From Dictyostelium discoideum (Eukaryota): a stretch of DNA of 64,000 bases. The stretch covers positions 1,248,001-1,312,000 of the forward strand of contig CM000153.2 in assembly GCA_000004695.1 (NCBI GenBank), read 5' to 3'. Each line of letters begins with the position of its first letter. Within the stretch, counting starts at the first letter, position 1. Of the stretch, positions 15,489 to 23,674 are shown in pieces. A program made the position numbers and the translations under genes. The notes beneath the pieces were generated by a model. That model ran no database searches. It had not been told where the DNA came from and worked only from the letters and a program-made list of their open reading frames with translations.

Positions 15489-17251
15489 ATGGCATTAAAA
15501 TATAATGATATTGAAGAAAGGGAAGAAATCAAGGATGATTTAGATAGATATGTTGATGGTGCATCTAGTGAAAATAATAATAATAATAATGTAATAATAA
15601 CATCTTCAGTAGAATATAAAGATATAAATGATAATTATCAAGATGTTAAATTAAATGATATAAATAATAATAGTAATAATAATAAAAGTAATAATAATAA
15701 TTATAATAATAATAGTGATGATTATTATATAAATAAAAGTATAATATCAAGATTATATTATTTTTTTAAAGATCAACCATCATCATTGTATAATACAATT
15801 CATTGTGCAATTGGTTTTCTTTTTATATTTTTAGGTTATTCCCCAACTCAAAGTTTAATAACAAATTTACACGAAAATAATGGTTCTATTGGGTTAGGAT
15901 TACTATATTTTTCATTTGCAATTGGTTGTTTTATAGCACCAGTAGTTTTAAAGAAAATTGGGTTAATGTAAGTAAGAAAAGAATAATATCTTTATTTTTT
16001 TTAAATTTATTTAAGTTTTAAAATTTTTTAACATATGTCATCTGATGAAATTAAAAAATAAAAGTAAATCTTTAACAATAGCAGGAATAACATATGCAAT
16101 TTTTATATTTTGTTCAATTACAGGTGTGAGTGTATTGGAAGGATTGTTTTTACCAGCATCAATATTGATTGGATTCGGTGCTGGTTTATTATGGACAAGT
16201 CAACCAGTTTATGTTTCAAGAAATGCACCAACTGAAAAAGAGTTGGGACTTTATTCAGGTATGTTTCAAACGGTTTATTCAATGGGTTCAATCGTAGGAA
16301 ATGCTATTAGTGGTACCTTACAAAATCAAGATGTAGATCCAACAATCATTTTATTGATTTTAGGTTCTTCCACACTTTGTGGTTGTATTTTATTAGCATT
16401 CTTAAGAAGAGTTGACCCAATTGTACCAACACCAAGAAAATCTTTCTCAAAAACATTTACTGGTGCATTTATGGTATTTAAAGATAGAAAATTTCTATTT
16501 TTAATTCCATTATTAATTGTACAAGGTCAATCGTAAGTTTTTTTTTTTTTTTTAAATTTTATAGTATATACTAATTTCTTTATTTTATAGTCAAAGTTAT
16601 TTTTATGAAACATTTAATGGTATAATAGGATTAGGTAGAATTGGTTATATTAGTGTTACAATGGGTATTGTTTCAGTTATTGGTTCAAGCGTTTGGGGTA
16701 GAGTTCATGATAAATTGAAAAATGGTAAAAGAATATTAGCATTGATAATGGGTGTTTTATATTTATTATCATTGACATTATTATCAGTGGCATACTACTT
16801 TGATGAAATTCCAATGTTTTATGTAATAGCTGCATTGAATGGTTTATTTGACTCTTTGCAAACAATTTTAATTTTTGTTACAATTGCTTCTCTTTATCCA
16901 AATGATAATGTTTCTGCATTTTCTGCATCAAGATTTTTAATGTCAATTTCAACGGGTATTGCTTTCTTTGTTTTCCATTATCTCAATTTCTTTGTAGTAA
17001 TATTTTGGATTTTAGCTTTATTAATTGTTGCTGAAATTTGTTTCCATAATTTACTTCAAGATATAAAATCAATAGTTAAATTACCAAATGATGATGATTA
17101 TGATACTCATACTGATATAAATAAATTTAATCTTCCAAATCAAAATTACAAAAACAATAATAACAATAATAATAACAATAATGAAGATGGTTATGAATTA
17201 GAATATGATGATACTGAAAGTAATTTATCATATGATGATAATAAAATTTAA
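15489..17251 (+). CDS. Polytopic membrane protein, UNC-93-like / MFS-type; join(15489..15967,16065..16532,16591..17251)
   Basis: Three track ORFs share one reading path. Exon 1 ends ..GL(M) with GTAAGT at 15968. Exon 2 (acceptor aaaataaaag at 16064) ends ...IVQGQS with GTAAGT at 16533. Exon 3 follows the ttattttatag acceptor at 16590 (tatactaat branch-like motif upstream). Multiple hydrophobic helices (GLGLLYFSFAIGCFIAPVVL, AIFIFCSITGVSVLEGLFLPASILIGFGAGLLW, ...). Tail is acidic and N-rich. Exon 1/2 phases fit only with the 16064 acceptor. Confidence 0.5.
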
Positions 17252-17346: not shown

Positions 17347-19125
17347 TTACTCAATTAATTTAAATGTGAAACATAATACACCTTTTTCTAATACTACTTC
17401 TGGGTTCTTTGGATGATAATTGTTTGGAATGTTGAGTATGAGTTCAAATGAACCATCACGTCTTTGATTATTTGAAAGGTATAATGATGTTTCTTCACTT
17501 GGGTAGCCACTTTCTGAATTTTTCATGTCAAATTGTAACTTTTTAACACCTTTGACAATTAGATTCCATTTTGTATTTTCATACTTTGTTTCATGGAAAA
17601 TTTCATCCAATACCATTTGAGGAACTTCAATAAGGTAACGTAAATCACTACCAACTTTTACAATATCATAGTTTGGTCTGAATCCATTCCAAAATACCAT
17701 TTGTAAACCAATAAATTCAACTTTGTTATCTATTAATTTAAATTCATTTTCCCTATTACTATCATTTTCTGGATATATTTTGAAAACTGGTATTTGAGAA
17801 ATTGTAGTTTTATGTGGAGTAACTTTTTCATAAATTTCTGTAAGTTCTTTTAAGTGCACTGAAAATTCACCAGATTCTTTGTCAAATAAGATTTTACCAT
17901 TTTCTTTATTGCAATTTTCAATGATTTTATCATCTTTTGTAAATTCGCTAATCTTTAGTTTTGATGGTGATTTACAATATGAAACCATATTATTTTGAAG
18001 TCCACTTAATAAAACTTTATCAAAATCCAATTTGTCATTATATTCTTTATTTGTTGATCTGATTTTTTCAATTGTTAAATCATTGTATTTTTTACCAAAT
18101 TCTGAATTATCATTACATAAAAAGAAATGATAACTATTGTTTACAGATTCTGTAAAAAATAATACAACTTCATCTTTACTTTTGATTGTTTTAAAATCAA
18201 TTTGATGGTGAAAAGTTCCATTAAATGGGTGATCCATATATGTTTTAATTTCAACCAATAGCTCCTCCATTGAATTGATTTTTGGATAGTTATGAACAAT
18301 TATTAATGTTTTGTTTATTTTTTGTTCTGTTCTTAATGATTGAATTTTTGATTGAAGTGCCAAGATAAATCTTTGATCAGTCCATGTGAGTTCATTTAAA
18401 ACATAAACAATGGTATTTGCTAATGAAAATGACATATCACGAATAAACATTTCAGTGGATTCTTTTCTTGCCAATTGTTCCTCTGATCTATTTTCACCAA
18501 CTTTTAATGAAGTATTTGAACCGGCTGTATCAATTGTAATTGTTTCATTATTGTGGCAAATTGAAAGTGATAATCCAATGGTTTGTGATTGAGTTCCACT
18601 TGGTAAATATGAATTATTGTATTTATTGATAAAGAATGTTTTACCAATATTAAAACAACCTAAACATGCAAGAGTTGAGTATTTTTTAAATTCTGCAAAT
18701 AATGAATTAAATGGTTCTAAAGGGTTAAAACCATTTGGTCCATTCATTTTTTCTTTTAATTTTTGAGAAAGAAAAATTAACCATGCTGTTTCTTTTTGTG
18801 AAAAATAATCAACTGCTGGAATATCAATAATTATATCATACTCCTTAATACCATTTTCTGGAATTGTAGTTTTGCCAATGTAACAATTTAATTTCTTTGA
18901 AAGTTCATTATTATGTTTTTCCAATTGTTCAATAATTTTCAAATATTCTTCCTCTTTAACTCTATGATTTTTAATATCATTTTCTAAATTTTTATTTCTT
19001 TTATATACCTTTGCCGATTCTTCCTGGTTTTTTTTTAAAATAACCTCAAGTTCTTTTCCACTAAGTATATAACCAAGTATTGATGGTAAACGAATGTCCT
19101 GAGGAACTAATAAATTTGATGCCAT
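17347..19125 (-). CDS. P-loop GTPase-like protein (N-terminal coiled coil, G1 GCFNIGKTFFINKY, G3 DTAG, about 250-aa C-terminal domain); tandem paralog A
   Basis: Track ORF 592 aa, single exon. ...LACLGCFNIGKTFFINKYNNSYLPSGTQSQTIGLSLSICHNNETITIDTAGSN... matches the TRAFAC-class G1 (G..N.GK[ST]..IN) and G3 (DTAG) motifs. No clear NKxD is seen. The N-terminus is lysine/glutamate-rich heptad-like. Confidence 0.6.
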   Translation of the reverse strand: MASNLLVPQDIRLPSILGYILSGKELEVILKKNQEESAKVYKRNKNLENDIKNHRVKEEEYLKIIEQLEKHNNELSKKLNCYIGKTTIPENGIKEYDIIIDIPAVDYFSQKETAWLIFLSQKLKEKMNGPNGFNPLEPFNSLFAEFKKYSTLACLGCFNIGKTFFINKYNNSYLPSGTQSQTIGLSLSICHNNETITIDTAGSNTSLKVGENRSEEQLARKESTEMFIRDMSFSLANTIVYVLNELTWTDQRFILALQSKIQSLRTEQKINKTLIIVHNYPKINSMEELLVEIKTYMDHPFNGTFHHQIDFKTIKSKDEVVLFFTESVNNSYHFFLCNDNSEFGKKYNDLTIEKIRSTNKEYNDKLDFDKVLLSGLQNNMVSYCKSPSKLKISEFTKDDKIIENCNKENGKILFDKESGEFSVHLKELTEIYEKVTPHKTTISQIPVFKIYPENDSNRENEFKLIDNKVEFIGLQMVFWNGFRPNYDIVKVGSDLRYLIEVPQMVLDEIFHETKYENTKWNLIVKGVKKLQFDMKNSESGYPSEETSLYLSNNQRRDGSFELILNIPNNYHPKNPEVVLEKGVLCFTFKLIE

Positions 19126-19502
19126 TATTTTTTTTTTTTCAAATTTTTTTTTTTTTTTTTTTATTTTATTTATTAAATTTAATTCAATATAGTTTTTGTT
19201 TATTTTTTTTGTTTTATTTGATTTGATTTTTTTGTTTAAATTAATGAATGAATTTTTAAATATTTATTTTTTATTTAAATTAAGAAAAAAAAATAATGTT
19301 TTTTTAAAAAAAAAACTTAAAAAAAAAACTTAAAAATTTTTTTTAAACAAAACTTAAAAAACTAAATAACACCCTCAACTTAAAAAATATAAGTCAAGAA
19401 AACCTATTTTTTTTTTTTTTTTTTTTTTTTACAAATCATTAATTAAGCAAATAATTATCTCCACCAAAGAGCTTTTTTTTTCAAAAGAAGAACAAAAAAC
19501 CC

Positions 19503-19533
<31 letters not shown>

Positions 19534-19680
19534 AACAAATGATTAATCATTAATTAAGCAAATAATTATCTTGAATTAAGAAAAAAAAAAAAAAAATAAT
19601 ACTATAAGAAATCTATTTTAATTTTTTATTTTTATCTTTATTTAATTTATACCAGTAACTGTGTATATATTTTGATTCAA

Positions 19681-21684
19681 TTATCCTATTTTTTCAAATT
19701 TGAAAGTAATAACGCCTTTATCTAAAGAAACAGCTGGTTTAATAGGTAAATACTCGGTAGGAATTGGTAGTGAGAATTCAAAGAGACCATCACGTCTTTG
19801 ATTTTGAGAAGGACATAATGATGTCAAATTACTTGGATAAACGGTTGTTTGATCATTTGAATCATATCTTAATTTCTTTATTCCTTTTATATTGAGATAC
19901 CATTGGCTACCTAAATGTTTTGTTTCAAATTCGATATCTTCCATTTCTAATTGAGGTACTTCAATGATATATCGTAAATCGGAATTAACTTTAACTATAT
20001 CATGAAATGGTTTGAAACCAGATGAAAAAACCATATTTAAACCAATAATTTCGATTCTATTAGCTATTAACTTAAAATCATTTTCTCTATTACAATCAAT
20101 CTCTGGAGAAATTGTAAATGCTGGTATTTGTTTAATTGAACTTCTATGTGGTGATACCATTTGATGTAACTTACACAATTCCTTTAAATGTTTTGAATAT
20201 TCATCAGTACCAAATGATGTGAACAATGGTTTATATTTTAAACTTGTATTAGCTTCATCAGATTTATTTTCAATATTATCATCCTTTTCATCTTTAATAA
20301 TTGGTTGCAATGGTGATGATGACGATGATGATATTGTTGGTGTTGATACCTCACTACCAGATTTATCATTATCTTGTATAGTATCATCGATGGATGGATG
20401 TAAAAACGATTGAGTTTGAAAAAGACTATCTGCTATTGGTCTTTCTTCAAGCTGTGATTTATTATTACTACTATTATTATTATTAATTTGATTAATAGTT
20501 GGTTCATGTTCAGTAATTTTTAATTTTTTTGGTGATTTACAATATGGTATCATGTTATTTTGAAGTGAAGTTAATAAAACTTTATCTAAATCCAAGTTAT
20601 CATTATAGTTTTTATAAGTTCTAATTTTTTCAATTGTTAATTGATTATATCTTTTACCAAATTCTGAATTATCATTACATAAAAAGAAATGATGGGTTTT
20701 ATTTACAGATTCAACGAAAAATAAAACTATCTCTTCTTTTGATTCTATTTTTTTAATATCAACATGATGATGATGAAAATTACCATTGAATGGAGACTCT
20801 ATATAGGTTTTAATTTCAGATAAAAGTTCTTCTTGTGAATTGACTTTAGGATAATTGTGAACGACTAATAGTTTTTTTATAATATTACTTTCAGATCTTA
20901 ATGATTGAATTTTCGATTGAAGTGCTAAAATAAATCTTTGATCATTCCAAGTTAATTCATTTAAAACGTAAACGATGATACTAGCTAATGAAAATGACAT
21001 ATCACAAATAAACATTTCAGTGGATTCTTTTCTTGCTAAATGCTCTTCGGTTTTATCTTCACAAACTTGTAAAGCAGTATTTGAGCCGGCTGTATCGATA
21101 GTGATGGTTTCGTTAAGACTTGATATTGAGAGTGATAATCCAATGGTTTGTGCTTGAGTTCCACTTGGTAAATAGGTACCATTGTATTTGTTGATAAAGA
21201 ATGTTTTACCTTTATTGAGTACACCTAAACATGCAAGAGTTGAAAACTTTTTATACTCTTTCAATAAGGAATGTAATGGTCTTTTTTTATTGTAGTTTGA
21301 ACTACCCATCTTTTGCTTTAACTGATTTGAAACATAAATTATCCACGATTTACGAGATTGTGATAAATAATCAACAGATGGAATATCAATGATAATATCA
21401 TACTCTCTAATACCATTGGCTGGAATTGAACTATCACCAATATAACAATTCAATTTCTTTGCAAGTTCAATTTTATCTTTATTTAATTTTTCAATCTCTT
21501 TCTTTAGATCTCCAACTTCAACTCTCTTTTTTGTTAATAACCCTTCAAAATTTTTACGTTCATTATCTTGTTTTTTTTTTTTGCTTTCTTTAAGATTTAA
21601 TTTTTCTTTTTTCCTTTTTAAAATTTTTTTAATAATAATGATCAATGTCGTGCATATAATAATGACCAATGTACCAACAAACAT
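19681..21684 (-). CDS. P-loop GTPase-like protein, tandem paralog B with N-terminal TM anchor and Ser-rich insert
   Basis: Track ORF 667 aa. Collinear with 17347..19125 (...AKKLNCYIGDSSIPANGIREYDIIIDIPSVDY..., LACLGVLNKGKTFFINKYNGTYLPSGTQAQTIGLSLSISSLNETITIDTAGSN, C-terminal ...FSSGFKPFHDIVKVNSDLRYIIEVPQ...). It additionally has MFVGTLVIIICTTLIIIIKK as a putative signal anchor and an about 100-aa S/N-rich insertion (NNNSSNNKS...SSSSSSPLQP). Confidence 0.6.
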   Translation of the reverse strand: MFVGTLVIIICTTLIIIIKKILKRKKEKLNLKESKKKKQDNERKNFEGLLTKKRVEVGDLKKEIEKLNKDKIELAKKLNCYIGDSSIPANGIREYDIIIDIPSVDYLSQSRKSWIIYVSNQLKQKMGSSNYNKKRPLHSLLKEYKKFSTLACLGVLNKGKTFFINKYNGTYLPSGTQAQTIGLSLSISSLNETITIDTAGSNTALQVCEDKTEEHLARKESTEMFICDMSFSLASIIVYVLNELTWNDQRFILALQSKIQSLRSESNIIKKLLVVHNYPKVNSQEELLSEIKTYIESPFNGNFHHHHVDIKKIESKEEIVLFFVESVNKTHHFFLCNDNSEFGKRYNQLTIEKIRTYKNYNDNLDLDKVLLTSLQNNMIPYCKSPKKLKITEHEPTINQINNNNSSNNKSQLEERPIADSLFQTQSFLHPSIDDTIQDNDKSGSEVSTPTISSSSSSPLQPIIKDEKDDNIENKSDEANTSLKYKPLFTSFGTDEYSKHLKELCKLHQMVSPHRSSIKQIPAFTISPEIDCNRENDFKLIANRIEIIGLNMVFSSGFKPFHDIVKVNSDLRYIIEVPQLEMEDIEFETKHLGSQWYLNIKGIKKLRYDSNDQTTVYPSNLTSLCPSQNQRRDGLFEFSLPIPTEYLPIKPAVSLDKGVITFKFEKIG

Positions 21685-22972: not shown

Positions 22973-23674
22973 ATGGACGTTATTAATGATCATTTAACAA
23001 TTGTACTCTGCCATGGATCTTTTACAGGTGCACTTGTATGGCAAAGTGTTATCCCATTCTTAGTTAAAGAAGGTTATAATGTTGTTGCAGTTGATTATCC
23101 AACTAGAGATTTTAATGAAGATGTTGAATACACTAGAAACTTAATTGATCGTCAAGATGGAAATGTATTATTAGTTGGCTATTCATATGGTGGTGCAGTT
23201 GTTACTGAAGCTGGTAAACATGAAAAAGTAGTTGGTATTGTTTATATCGCTGGTTTTGCACTTGATGAAGGTGATAGTTTAGGTAGCATCCTTGGCAGAA
23301 GAGAAGATCAAGGTGCCAATAGCAGAATTCTCGATAGTAAGGGTTTCCTTTGGGTTAAACCAGAAGATTTCAATAAATGTATTTGTCAAGATCTTAGCCA
23401 AGAAGAATCATTAGCAATGTCATTATGCCAAAAACCATTACATCTTTCCATTGTCACCCATACAATGGGTCCAAATCCAGCTTGGAAAAATAAACCAACT
23501 TGGTATCAAATCTCTGATAACGATAGAATGATTCCACAAGAAACTCAAATCGAAATGGTTAATAACATTAAACCAAAGAAAACCATTCATTTAAATTCAA
23601 ACCATGCTTCAATTTCTTCTCATCCAAAAGAAGTTACAGCTTTCATTATTGAAGCTGCTTCAACATTTAAATAA
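22973..23674 (+). CDS. alpha/beta-hydrolase fold protein (esterase-like)
   Basis: Track ORF 233 aa. ...TIVLCHGSFTGALVWQSVIPFL..VVAVDYP...VLLVGYSYGGAVV (GxSxG nucleophile elbow) ...VYIAGFALDEGD... is the typical AB_hydrolase_6-like layout. Confidence 0.6.
   Translation: MDVINDHLTIVLCHGSFTGALVWQSVIPFLVKEGYNVVAVDYPTRDFNEDVEYTRNLIDRQDGNVLLVGYSYGGAVVTEAGKHEKVVGIVYIAGFALDEGDSLGSILGRREDQGANSRILDSKGFLWVKPEDFNKCICQDLSQEESLAMSLCQKPLHLSIVTHTMGPNPAWKNKPTWYQISDNDRMIPQETQIEMVNNIKPKKTIHLNSNHASISSHPKEVTAFIIEAASTFK

Follow-up and report, generated by a model that had tools for sequence, protein, structure and literature searches.

A stretch of 64,000 nucleotides from Dictyostelium discoideum (contig CM000153.2, positions 1,248,001 to 1,312,000, here called the window) carries two adjacent genes, A and B, whose products join a P-loop nucleoside triphosphatase (NTPase) domain to an alpha-crystallin domain (ACD). 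They belong to a distinct GBP/SMG9-like NTPase subfamily of wide distribution, in which an invariant His-Asn occupies the G4 position and an ACD is obligatorily fused. Both component domains are known, and the genes are already annotated by their ACD. No description of a GTPase-ACD fusion family was found in the full-text literature, the coverage of which was incomplete. With high confidence in both the architecture and the family assignment, the two products are read as an N-terminal coiled-coil helix, a short beta-hairpin, a P-loop NTPase domain and a C-terminal ACD. The genes are:

17347..19125, minus strand: gene A, single-exon coding sequence of 592 amino acids, uninterrupted open reading frame (ORF)
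19681..21684, minus strand: gene B, single-exon coding sequence of 667 amino acids, uninterrupted ORF

Their head-to-tail arrangement as tandem paralogues had been proposed in the original prediction and is borne out, both genes being intact. By exact-sequence identity to XP_638795.1, A is DDB_G0283911 of D. discoideum AX4 (hsp69, Q54QE9; for the name, see PMC6584373), annotated there as "HSP20-like chaperone domain-containing protein". B is DDB_G0283913 (exact identity to XP_638796.1/Q54QE8), annotated as "Heat shock protein DDB_G0283913". BLASTP aligns the two proteins with 67% identity across A33-394 (E 7e-168) and, in a second segment, with 54% identity across A418-591 (E 1e-58), a similarity far beyond chance, and they are evidently clear paralogues. 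The window is very AT-rich (GC about 13-32% in 2-kb windows) and contains no further copy of the family besides A and B.

The structure of A was modelled with AlphaFold2 using a 112-sequence alignment, which gave a predicted local distance difference test score (pLDDT) of 89.2 and a predicted template modelling score of 0.81; an earlier model based on 9 mostly dictyostelid sequences (pLDDT 57.9) was discarded in its favour. From the model and from sequence comparison the following parts are recognised, the independent E-value (i-E) being that of a hidden Markov model (HMM) described below:

A residues 23-83, 18877..19059, minus strand: single long helix, presumed coiled coil (pLDDT 76-96)
A residues 96-119, 18769..18840, minus strand: family-specific pre-G beta-hairpin with the motif YD.(V/I)(I/V)DI.S....GW.I (strands 98-101 and 115-119 in the model)
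A residues about 150-360, 18046..18678, minus strand: alpha/beta NTPase (G) domain of GBP/atlastin/SMG9 type
A residues 361-485, minus strand: linker with helices and short strands in the model
A residues 486-590, 17356..17670, minus strand: beta-sandwich, the alpha-crystallin (Hsp20) domain
B residues 2-19, 21628..21681, minus strand: N-terminal hydrophobic anchor FVGTLVIIICTTLIIIIK followed by a basic cluster (Kyte-Doolittle mean 2.54 over 19 residues)
B residues about 148-358, 20611..21243, minus strand: G domain, 67% identical to that of A (non-dictyostelid HMM i-E 3e-30)
B residues 393-492, 20209..20508, minus strand: low-complexity Ser/Asn/Asp-rich linker insert, lying in the gap between the two BLASTP segments
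B residues 561-665, 19690..20004, minus strand: ACD

The coiled-coil N-terminus expected from the sequence is thus one long helix in the model, and the expected Ser/Asn-rich insert of B measures about 100 residues as against 23 at the same place in A. Conserved positions of the pre-G hairpin are Y96 (102/112), D97 (97/112) and W115 (82/112); here and below, such counts refer to sequences of the 112-member alignment, in A numbering.

The extent of the family was established by an exhaustive HMMER scan over 1.84 billion cluster representatives, which returned 383 relatives at E <= 1e-3, of which 112 reached E <= 1e-10, most of them aligning over A residues about 145-360. The dictyostelid members are from Dictyostelium, Acytostelium, Synstelium and Tieghemostelium, and other amoebozoans and relatives are represented by Thecamoeba and Lithocolla. 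There are also chlorarachniophyte (Gymnochlora, Amorphochlora and Bigelowiella), foraminiferan (Bolivina), euglenid (Ploeotia and Rhabdomonas), Goniomonas and haptophyte (Prymnesium) members, and numerous ones in ciliates (Tetrahymena, Paramecium, Blepharisma and Pseudocohnilembus). The family is mainly one of protists, with rhizarians, cryptists, euglenids, haptophytes, ciliates and amoebozoans among its sources. All carry automatic names, such as "SHSP domain-containing protein", "50S ribosome-binding GTPase" or "HSP20 family molecular chaperone IbpA". Both a G domain and an ACD were present in 96 of the 106 near-full-length representatives, and the fusion of the two is the rule in the family. 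The precomputed Pfam architecture of its canonical branch is PF02263 (GBP), PF01926 (MMR_HSR1) and PF00011 (HSP20). When 80 members were searched against Pfam at E <= 1e-3, MMR_HSR1 was matched by 67, GBP by 37, HSP20 by 18 and Dynamin_N by 10, A giving no match; at E <= 1, A had a sub-threshold MMR_HSR1 match only and B was without a G-domain or HSP20 match. The Dictyostelium pair is accordingly placed, on these sequence comparisons, as a divergent offshoot of the family. As a non-circular check an HMM was built from 64 non-dictyostelid members only (ciliate, haptophyte and chlorarachniophyte). This HMM retrieves A with an E-value of 4e-37 (i-E 9e-28 for its G domain) and B with one of 1e-35, in both cases with collinear alignments.

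The G1 and G3 motifs quoted in the original prediction are all present in the G domains. Their positions, together with those of the other motifs, are:

A G1/P-loop, 18637..18660, minus strand: G156-CFNIGK-T163
B G1, 21202-21225, minus strand: GVLNKGKT
A switch I/G2, 18568..18606, minus strand: L174-PSGTQSQT182-IGLS186
A G3, 18520..18531, minus strand: D199-TAG202
A H278-N279, 18289..18294, minus strand: end of strand 5, the G4 position

In A numbering, the motifs of the family as a whole read:

Pre-G hairpin: Y96-D97-x-(V/I)(I/V)-D-I-x-S...G-W115
G1: G156-(L)(F/Y)(N/D)(K/R)-G161-K162-T
Switch I: LPSG....T182-x-G184-(L/I)-S186
G3: D199-(T/S)-A-G202-..-(S/T)-P
Helix 2: T224-E225
After strand 4: V-V-N244-x-L-T247-..-D250-Q251
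End of strand 5, G4 position: V-V-H278-N279
Later positions: H333, S341-x-A-G344, N348

Both A (GCFNIGKT) and B (GVLNKGKT) have a Walker A motif, GxxxxGK[ST], whose G156 is found in 109/112 and whose G161 and K162 are each found in 110/112. Switch I (T182 112/112, G184 108/112, S186 107/112) and G3 (D199 112/112, G202 111/112) are equally well preserved, and the strings LPSGT...T.GLS and ITIDTAGSN occur in both members of the pair and are invariant among orthologues. At the G4 position H278 is conserved in 111 and N279 in 112 of the sequences; YPK comes next in A and B, and the family consensus is HN[FLY][KR][DNE]. T182, D199 and N279 are thus invariant throughout the alignment. A canonical G4, [NT]KxD or RD, was not found at the end of strand 5 in A or B. 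The sole [NT][KQ]xD strings (TKDD396 in A, NKSD473 in B) sit in the non-conserved linker, and where RD does occur, at 229 and 556 in A and at 631 in B, it is away from the end of strand 5. The lack of NKxD that had been remarked upon in the pair holds for the whole family, in which G4 is, judging by the alignment, non-canonical throughout.

One P-loop position differs between the paralogues. Codon 160 of A (18646-18648) specifies Ile, as in its closest orthologues, versus Lys or Arg in 85/112 family members, including B, and catalytic competence may therefore differ between the two proteins.

It had been held that the G domain belongs to no nameable family. This could not be sustained, since a profile of the family matches the GBPs over G1-G3 and the fold is nearest to SMG9, GBP and atlastin; a named family with a canonical G4 and G5 was nevertheless not what emerged. 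The whole-family profile detects GBP2/5/1 at E 4.5e-10 to 3e-8, and the G-only profile GBP5, GBP2 and GBP1 at E 1e-10 to 5e-9 (GBP5 being the best, 1e-10), followed by Der (2.7e-6) and then Arl6, HflX, Era, IF2 and Sey1. The GBP profile alignment runs from the strand before G1 through G3 only. A GBP-like N...T...Q motif after strand 4 is not claimed, the post-G3 profile having matched no GBP or other GTPase in the PDB. As a single sequence, A gave sub-threshold matches only (MMR_HSR1 in Pfam, E 0.012; Arl6 in the PDB, E 0.84), and Pfam GBP matched neither A nor B as compared with 37/80 relatives at E <= 1e-3. In fold, the model of A is closest to SMG9, GBP, atlastin, RNF112 and Sey1, with SMG9 as the best structural match. 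The GBP/SMG9-type matches rank ahead of EngB (11.7), Era (11.2) and GIMAP7 (11.1), in which Foldseek agrees, and the model has the large G-domain fold of the GBP/atlastin/Sey1 type. The domain therefore lies in the GBP/atlastin/Sey1/RNF112/SMG9 neighbourhood. It is not filed as GBP itself because the RD motif and the helical effector domains of that group are absent.

The profile match of the A/B family to GBP1/2/5 takes in the pre-G1 strand, the P-loop (GLY..GK[ST]-hLhN-L), switch I (.T.G[IL]) and G3 (LLD[TS].G). In GBPs, G4 is the RD motif, T[LV]RD; in the A/B family this is replaced by the invariant VVHN, and the position of the GBP P-loop Arg finger is Asn or Asp. A and B possess neither the C-terminal helical domain nor the CaaX box of GBPs, carrying instead the N-terminal coiled coil and the C-terminal ACD. 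In the model the G domain of A is followed by a short linker, beta-strands and the ACD, with no helical middle or effector domain and no stalk. SMG9, which works as a heterodimer with the G-fold protein SMG8, is nearest in G-fold; no sequence similarity to it was detected, SMG9 being missing from the match lists of both the family profile and the G-only profile. SMG9 is without an ACD, a coiled coil or a transmembrane (TM) anchor. It belongs to nonsense-mediated decay, and there is no evidence for that role in A/B. Atlastin, Sey1 (RHD3) and RNF112 are built with a TM hairpin at the C-terminus and with a helical bundle or stalk; B is stalkless, with its one anchor at the N-terminus and an ACD at the C-terminus.

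The C-terminal domain had been described as a new, conserved domain of about 250 amino acids. A conserved C-terminus is indeed present, but it comprises about 175 amino acids (linker, short strands and an ACD of ~105 amino acids), and the domain is the known alpha-crystallin/Hsp20 domain, already recognised in the AX4 annotation. In the model of A it has the alpha-crystallin fold, with Foldseek template modelling scores of up to 0.79. The family profile matches small heat-shock proteins (sHSPs; S. pombe Hsp16 at E 7e-17), and the family keeps the sHSP signature P..D....D.PG...I.G.R...R..G.F....P......GVL. The non-dictyostelid HMM recognises the ACD of A with an i-E of 3.8e-6 and that of B with one of 0.029. 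Pfam HSP20 gave no match to the C-termini of A and B even at E <= 10, as opposed to the 18/80 relatives that do match it. The resemblance to sHSPs (X. axonopodis HspA, wheat Hsp16.9 and S. pombe Hsp16) lies in the profile match of the family and, in the model of A, in a long loop between strands 5 and 7 like that of non-metazoan sHSPs. A and B differ in size (69 and 77 kDa versus 12-43 kDa), in having no C-terminal extension or IxI motif, ending as they do two residues past the last ACD strand (...CFTFKLIE, ...ITFKFEKIG), and in the replacement of the N-terminal region by a coiled coil and an NTPase. Furthermore, sHSPs are defined as nucleotide-independent, whereas A and B have an NTPase covalently attached.

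When the full A model was compared with BFVD using Foldseek, three Pandoravirus proteins gave far better matches than any single-domain viral match:

P. macleodensis A0A2U7UG16: E 1.9e-27, 584 columns, near full length
P. neocaledonia A0A2U7UBR9: E 5e-24, 594 columns, near full length
P. inopinatum A0A0B5IZ16: E 2.4e-18, about 500 columns

As matches between models, these imply that the G-domain plus ACD architecture is probably also encoded by giant viruses of amoebae, and suggest that pandoraviruses may have captured the whole of it from an amoebal host.

The prediction that one copy is membrane-anchored agrees with the sequences, B having a predicted hydrophobic anchor and A none. B opens with a hydrophobic stretch of 18 residues, after which comes KKILKRKKEK. 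The anchor is kept in the B orthologues P0007 and P0008, and the proteins of a sister dictyostelid subfamily (P0010 and P0011) also begin with one; hydrophobic segments, N-terminal or elsewhere, were noted in roughly 15-20 further family representatives. A hydrophobic anchor is thus, as far as prediction goes, a recurrent trait of the family. That B "acquired" its TM helix has not been established: since the sister subfamily and the B orthologues carry the anchor, its loss in A is about as parsimonious as its gain in B. B codons 4-39 (window about 21568-21674) form an in-frame 108-nucleotide GT..AG segment, which is treated as an intron in the gene model of another assembly (P0006, MFV|DNERK...). 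Its splicing would remove the membrane anchor, and a soluble B isoform could in principle arise by alternative splicing. The retention of the hydrophobic N-terminus in P0007 and P0008 argues that these codons are coding.

In a neighbour-joining tree A, B and their orthologues form a clade with 100% support. Its sister is the second dictyostelid subfamily (P0010, P0011), and the two copies of D. firmibasis fall with B (97%). The ratio of nonsynonymous to synonymous substitution rates (dN/dS) between A and B is 0.36 overall, with values of 0.24 for the G domain and 0.37 for the ACD, which points to purifying selection on both genes. Across the coiled-coil regions (A 18877-19059, B 21439-21624) it is about 1.07 versus 0.24 in the G domain. 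This fast divergence might reflect either a constraint relaxed to heptad character or a change that could disfavour A-B heterodimers through the coil. The gene model of P0008 (D. cf. discoideum ACTFIZ_008644) is 464 amino acids long, has a poly-Asn end and lacks an ACD; either the copy in that strain is truncated, or the assembly or annotation breaks off at the low-complexity insert. The 60-codon antisense ORFs 18410..18592 and 20975..21157 to which the original prediction drew attention do exist and are conserved, but they are not accepted as separate features. They lie over A codons 178-239, from switch I to helix 2, where the coding sequence is at its most conserved. The differences between A and B there number 9/6/18 at sense codon positions 1/2/3, and the antisense ORFs are for this reason regarded as a by-product of constraint on the sense strand.

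Expression was assessed from RNA-seq data comparing AX2 with autophagy mutants (PMC8204557, Table S1). B is increased 5.93-fold in ATG9- and 6.24-fold in ATG16- cells, and A (hsp69) 3.82-fold and 3.19-fold, respectively (PMC8204557). Since both transcripts rise together in the two mutants, A and B are expressed and co-regulated, as the original prediction had proposed to check. The hsp69 protein is also raised, being among the few entities that are increased at both the RNA and the protein level (PMC8204557). Rising alongside them are trafH, trafL, T4-like lysozyme genes, agnB and a patatin-family gene (PMC8204557).

Convergent with A is a three-exon MFS/UNC-93-like transporter gene (15489-17251, plus strand; Pfam MFS_1 1e-14, UNC-93 2e-11), and divergent from B is a gene for a 233-amino acid alpha/beta hydrolase (22973-23674, plus strand; Abhydrolase_6 1.5e-20). 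No functional link of these flanking genes to A and B is evident. A perfect 25-bp direct repeat, GATAATTATTTGCTTAATTAATGAT, occurs on the minus strand at 19435-19459 and 19546-19570, with a spacing of 111 bp. It is intergenic, between the stop codon of B and the start of A, ~310 and ~420 bp upstream of the A ATG, and has no further copy anywhere in the window (chance expectation 0). The repeat might regulate A in cis or belong to the 3' end of B.

The explanation that best accounts for these data, to which we give an even chance, is that A and B are expressed and maintained paralogues in which nucleotide-driven dimerisation of the G domain gates ACD assembly or client binding. The coupling mechanism itself, drawn by analogy, is put forward more tentatively. 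The coiled coil would pair two chains, and the GBP/SMG9-like domain would bind a nucleoside triphosphate (GTP or ATP) and dimerise across its nucleotide face in the manner of GBPs, atlastins and SMG8-SMG9. Dimerisation would alter the spacing, geometry and valency of the attached ACDs, and this altered geometry would switch self-assembly or the capture of non-native client proteins. B would work at the cytosolic face of a membrane, because its positive cluster comes after the anchor, and A in the cytosol, possibly as A-B hetero-oligomers.

A number of observations weigh against nucleotide-gated ACD function. The only thing that points to coupling of the NTPase to the ACD is the domain fusion itself. 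G4 is non-canonical, so that GTP specificity is unproven and the base could be that of GTP or ATP, and A has Ile160 in the P-loop at the site of the prevalent Lys or Arg. SMG9, the closest protein in structure, uses rearranged G4/G5 motifs to bind ATP and is apparently a non-cycling scaffold (PMC7334022). The part of the G domain after G3, searched as a profile, showed no similarity to any solved protein in the PDB, and A and B fall below the Pfam thresholds for GBP, MMR_HSR1 and HSP20. Because the C-terminal IxI tail is absent from A and B, canonical sHSP oligomers seem unlikely to be formed. Finally, no heat-shock element (GAANNTTCNNGAA, <=1 mismatch) was found upstream of A or B, and the counts of this element over the whole window are under chance expectation; the "heat shock" names derive from domain content alone.

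Among the alternatives, the proteins might be GBP/atlastin-like membrane GTPases engaged in cell-autonomous defence or in tethering and remodelling, with the ACD serving as an oligomerisation or cargo adaptor like CS/p23-type domains and not as a chaperone. We consider this rather unlikely. The G domain is nearest to GBPs, atlastins and Sey1 by both profile and fold, anchors are frequent in the family, A and B rise in autophagy mutants together with trafH, trafL, the T4-like lysozyme genes and agnB, and the Pandoravirus fold matches suggest a role at the host-pathogen interface, all of which fits. However, there is no helical stalk or GTPase effector domain of the kind that GBPs, atlastins and Sey1 use for membrane work, the ACD profile matches true sHSPs (E 7e-17) with the signature kept, and A has no membrane anchor.

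An improbable alternative is that the G domain is a constitutively nucleotide-bound dimerisation scaffold, possibly holding ATP as SMG9 does, and that the proteins are enlarged constitutive sHSPs without a nucleotide cycle. Such a scaffold would agree with the absence of both NKxD and RD from the family, the lack of a basic P-loop residue at position 160 of A and the current annotation, in which these are Hsp20-domain proteins only. Yet 98-100% of 112 very divergent sequences retain the Thr of switch I, the Asp-x-x-Gly of G3 and the Lys/Thr of the P-loop, which is more typical of an active NTPase, and the sequence profile detects GBPs, not SMG9.

The strong form of the original prediction envisaged novelty at the level of Dictyostelium, that is, an unclassifiable TRAFAC GTPase with a new 250-amino acid domain and a recent gain of TM helix and insert in B. 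A and B alone give no significant Pfam or PDB sequence match and their G4 is truly non-canonical; this form is nonetheless refuted by the family scan, the ACD matches, the fold comparison and the Pfam architectures, and we hold it to be highly improbable. The architecture recurs in 383 representative clusters spread over many supergroups of eukaryotes. What was taken for a new domain is an ACD, the G domain falls in with GBP, atlastin and SMG9, and B is not alone in having a TM anchor, as the sister subfamily and other members of the family have one too. That one copy is a decaying duplicate, a pseudogene or unexpressed, has almost nothing to commend it beyond the coiled-coil dN/dS of about 1 and the P0008 gene model without an ACD, and is rejected on the dN/dS and expression data, both ORFs being intact, dN/dS being 0.24-0.37 in the folded domains, both mRNAs being detected and regulated and the hsp69 protein having been seen by proteomics.

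The reading of A and B as maintained paralogues with nucleotide-gated ACDs can be extended to a bolder and doubtful proposal. In this, a pan-protist, pandoravirus-captured "GBP-ACD" class would exist in which dimerisation driven by nucleoside triphosphate controls an sHSP-type holdase or sequestrase, partly at membranes, and A and B would be a soluble and anchored duo for overloaded autophagy or cell-autonomous defence.

The names "heat shock protein" and "hsp69" conceal the NTPase half of the two products, which is the larger half and the better conserved one. The invariant His-Asn at G4 bears on how G domains change base specificity, as may be compared with the ATP-binding SMG9. For experimental work Dictyostelium is tractable, offering soluble and membrane-anchored paralogues and a known inducing condition, the loss of ATG9 or ATG16. 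sHSPs are textbook ATP-independent chaperones, and GBP/atlastin-type GTPases are assembly machines driven by nucleotide that serve in immunity and membrane dynamics. The conserved covalent fusion of the two suggests an undescribed way of regulating an alpha-crystallin domain; if the proposal is true, the GBP-ACD class would provide the first case of nucleotide regulation among chaperones that are by definition nucleotide-independent.

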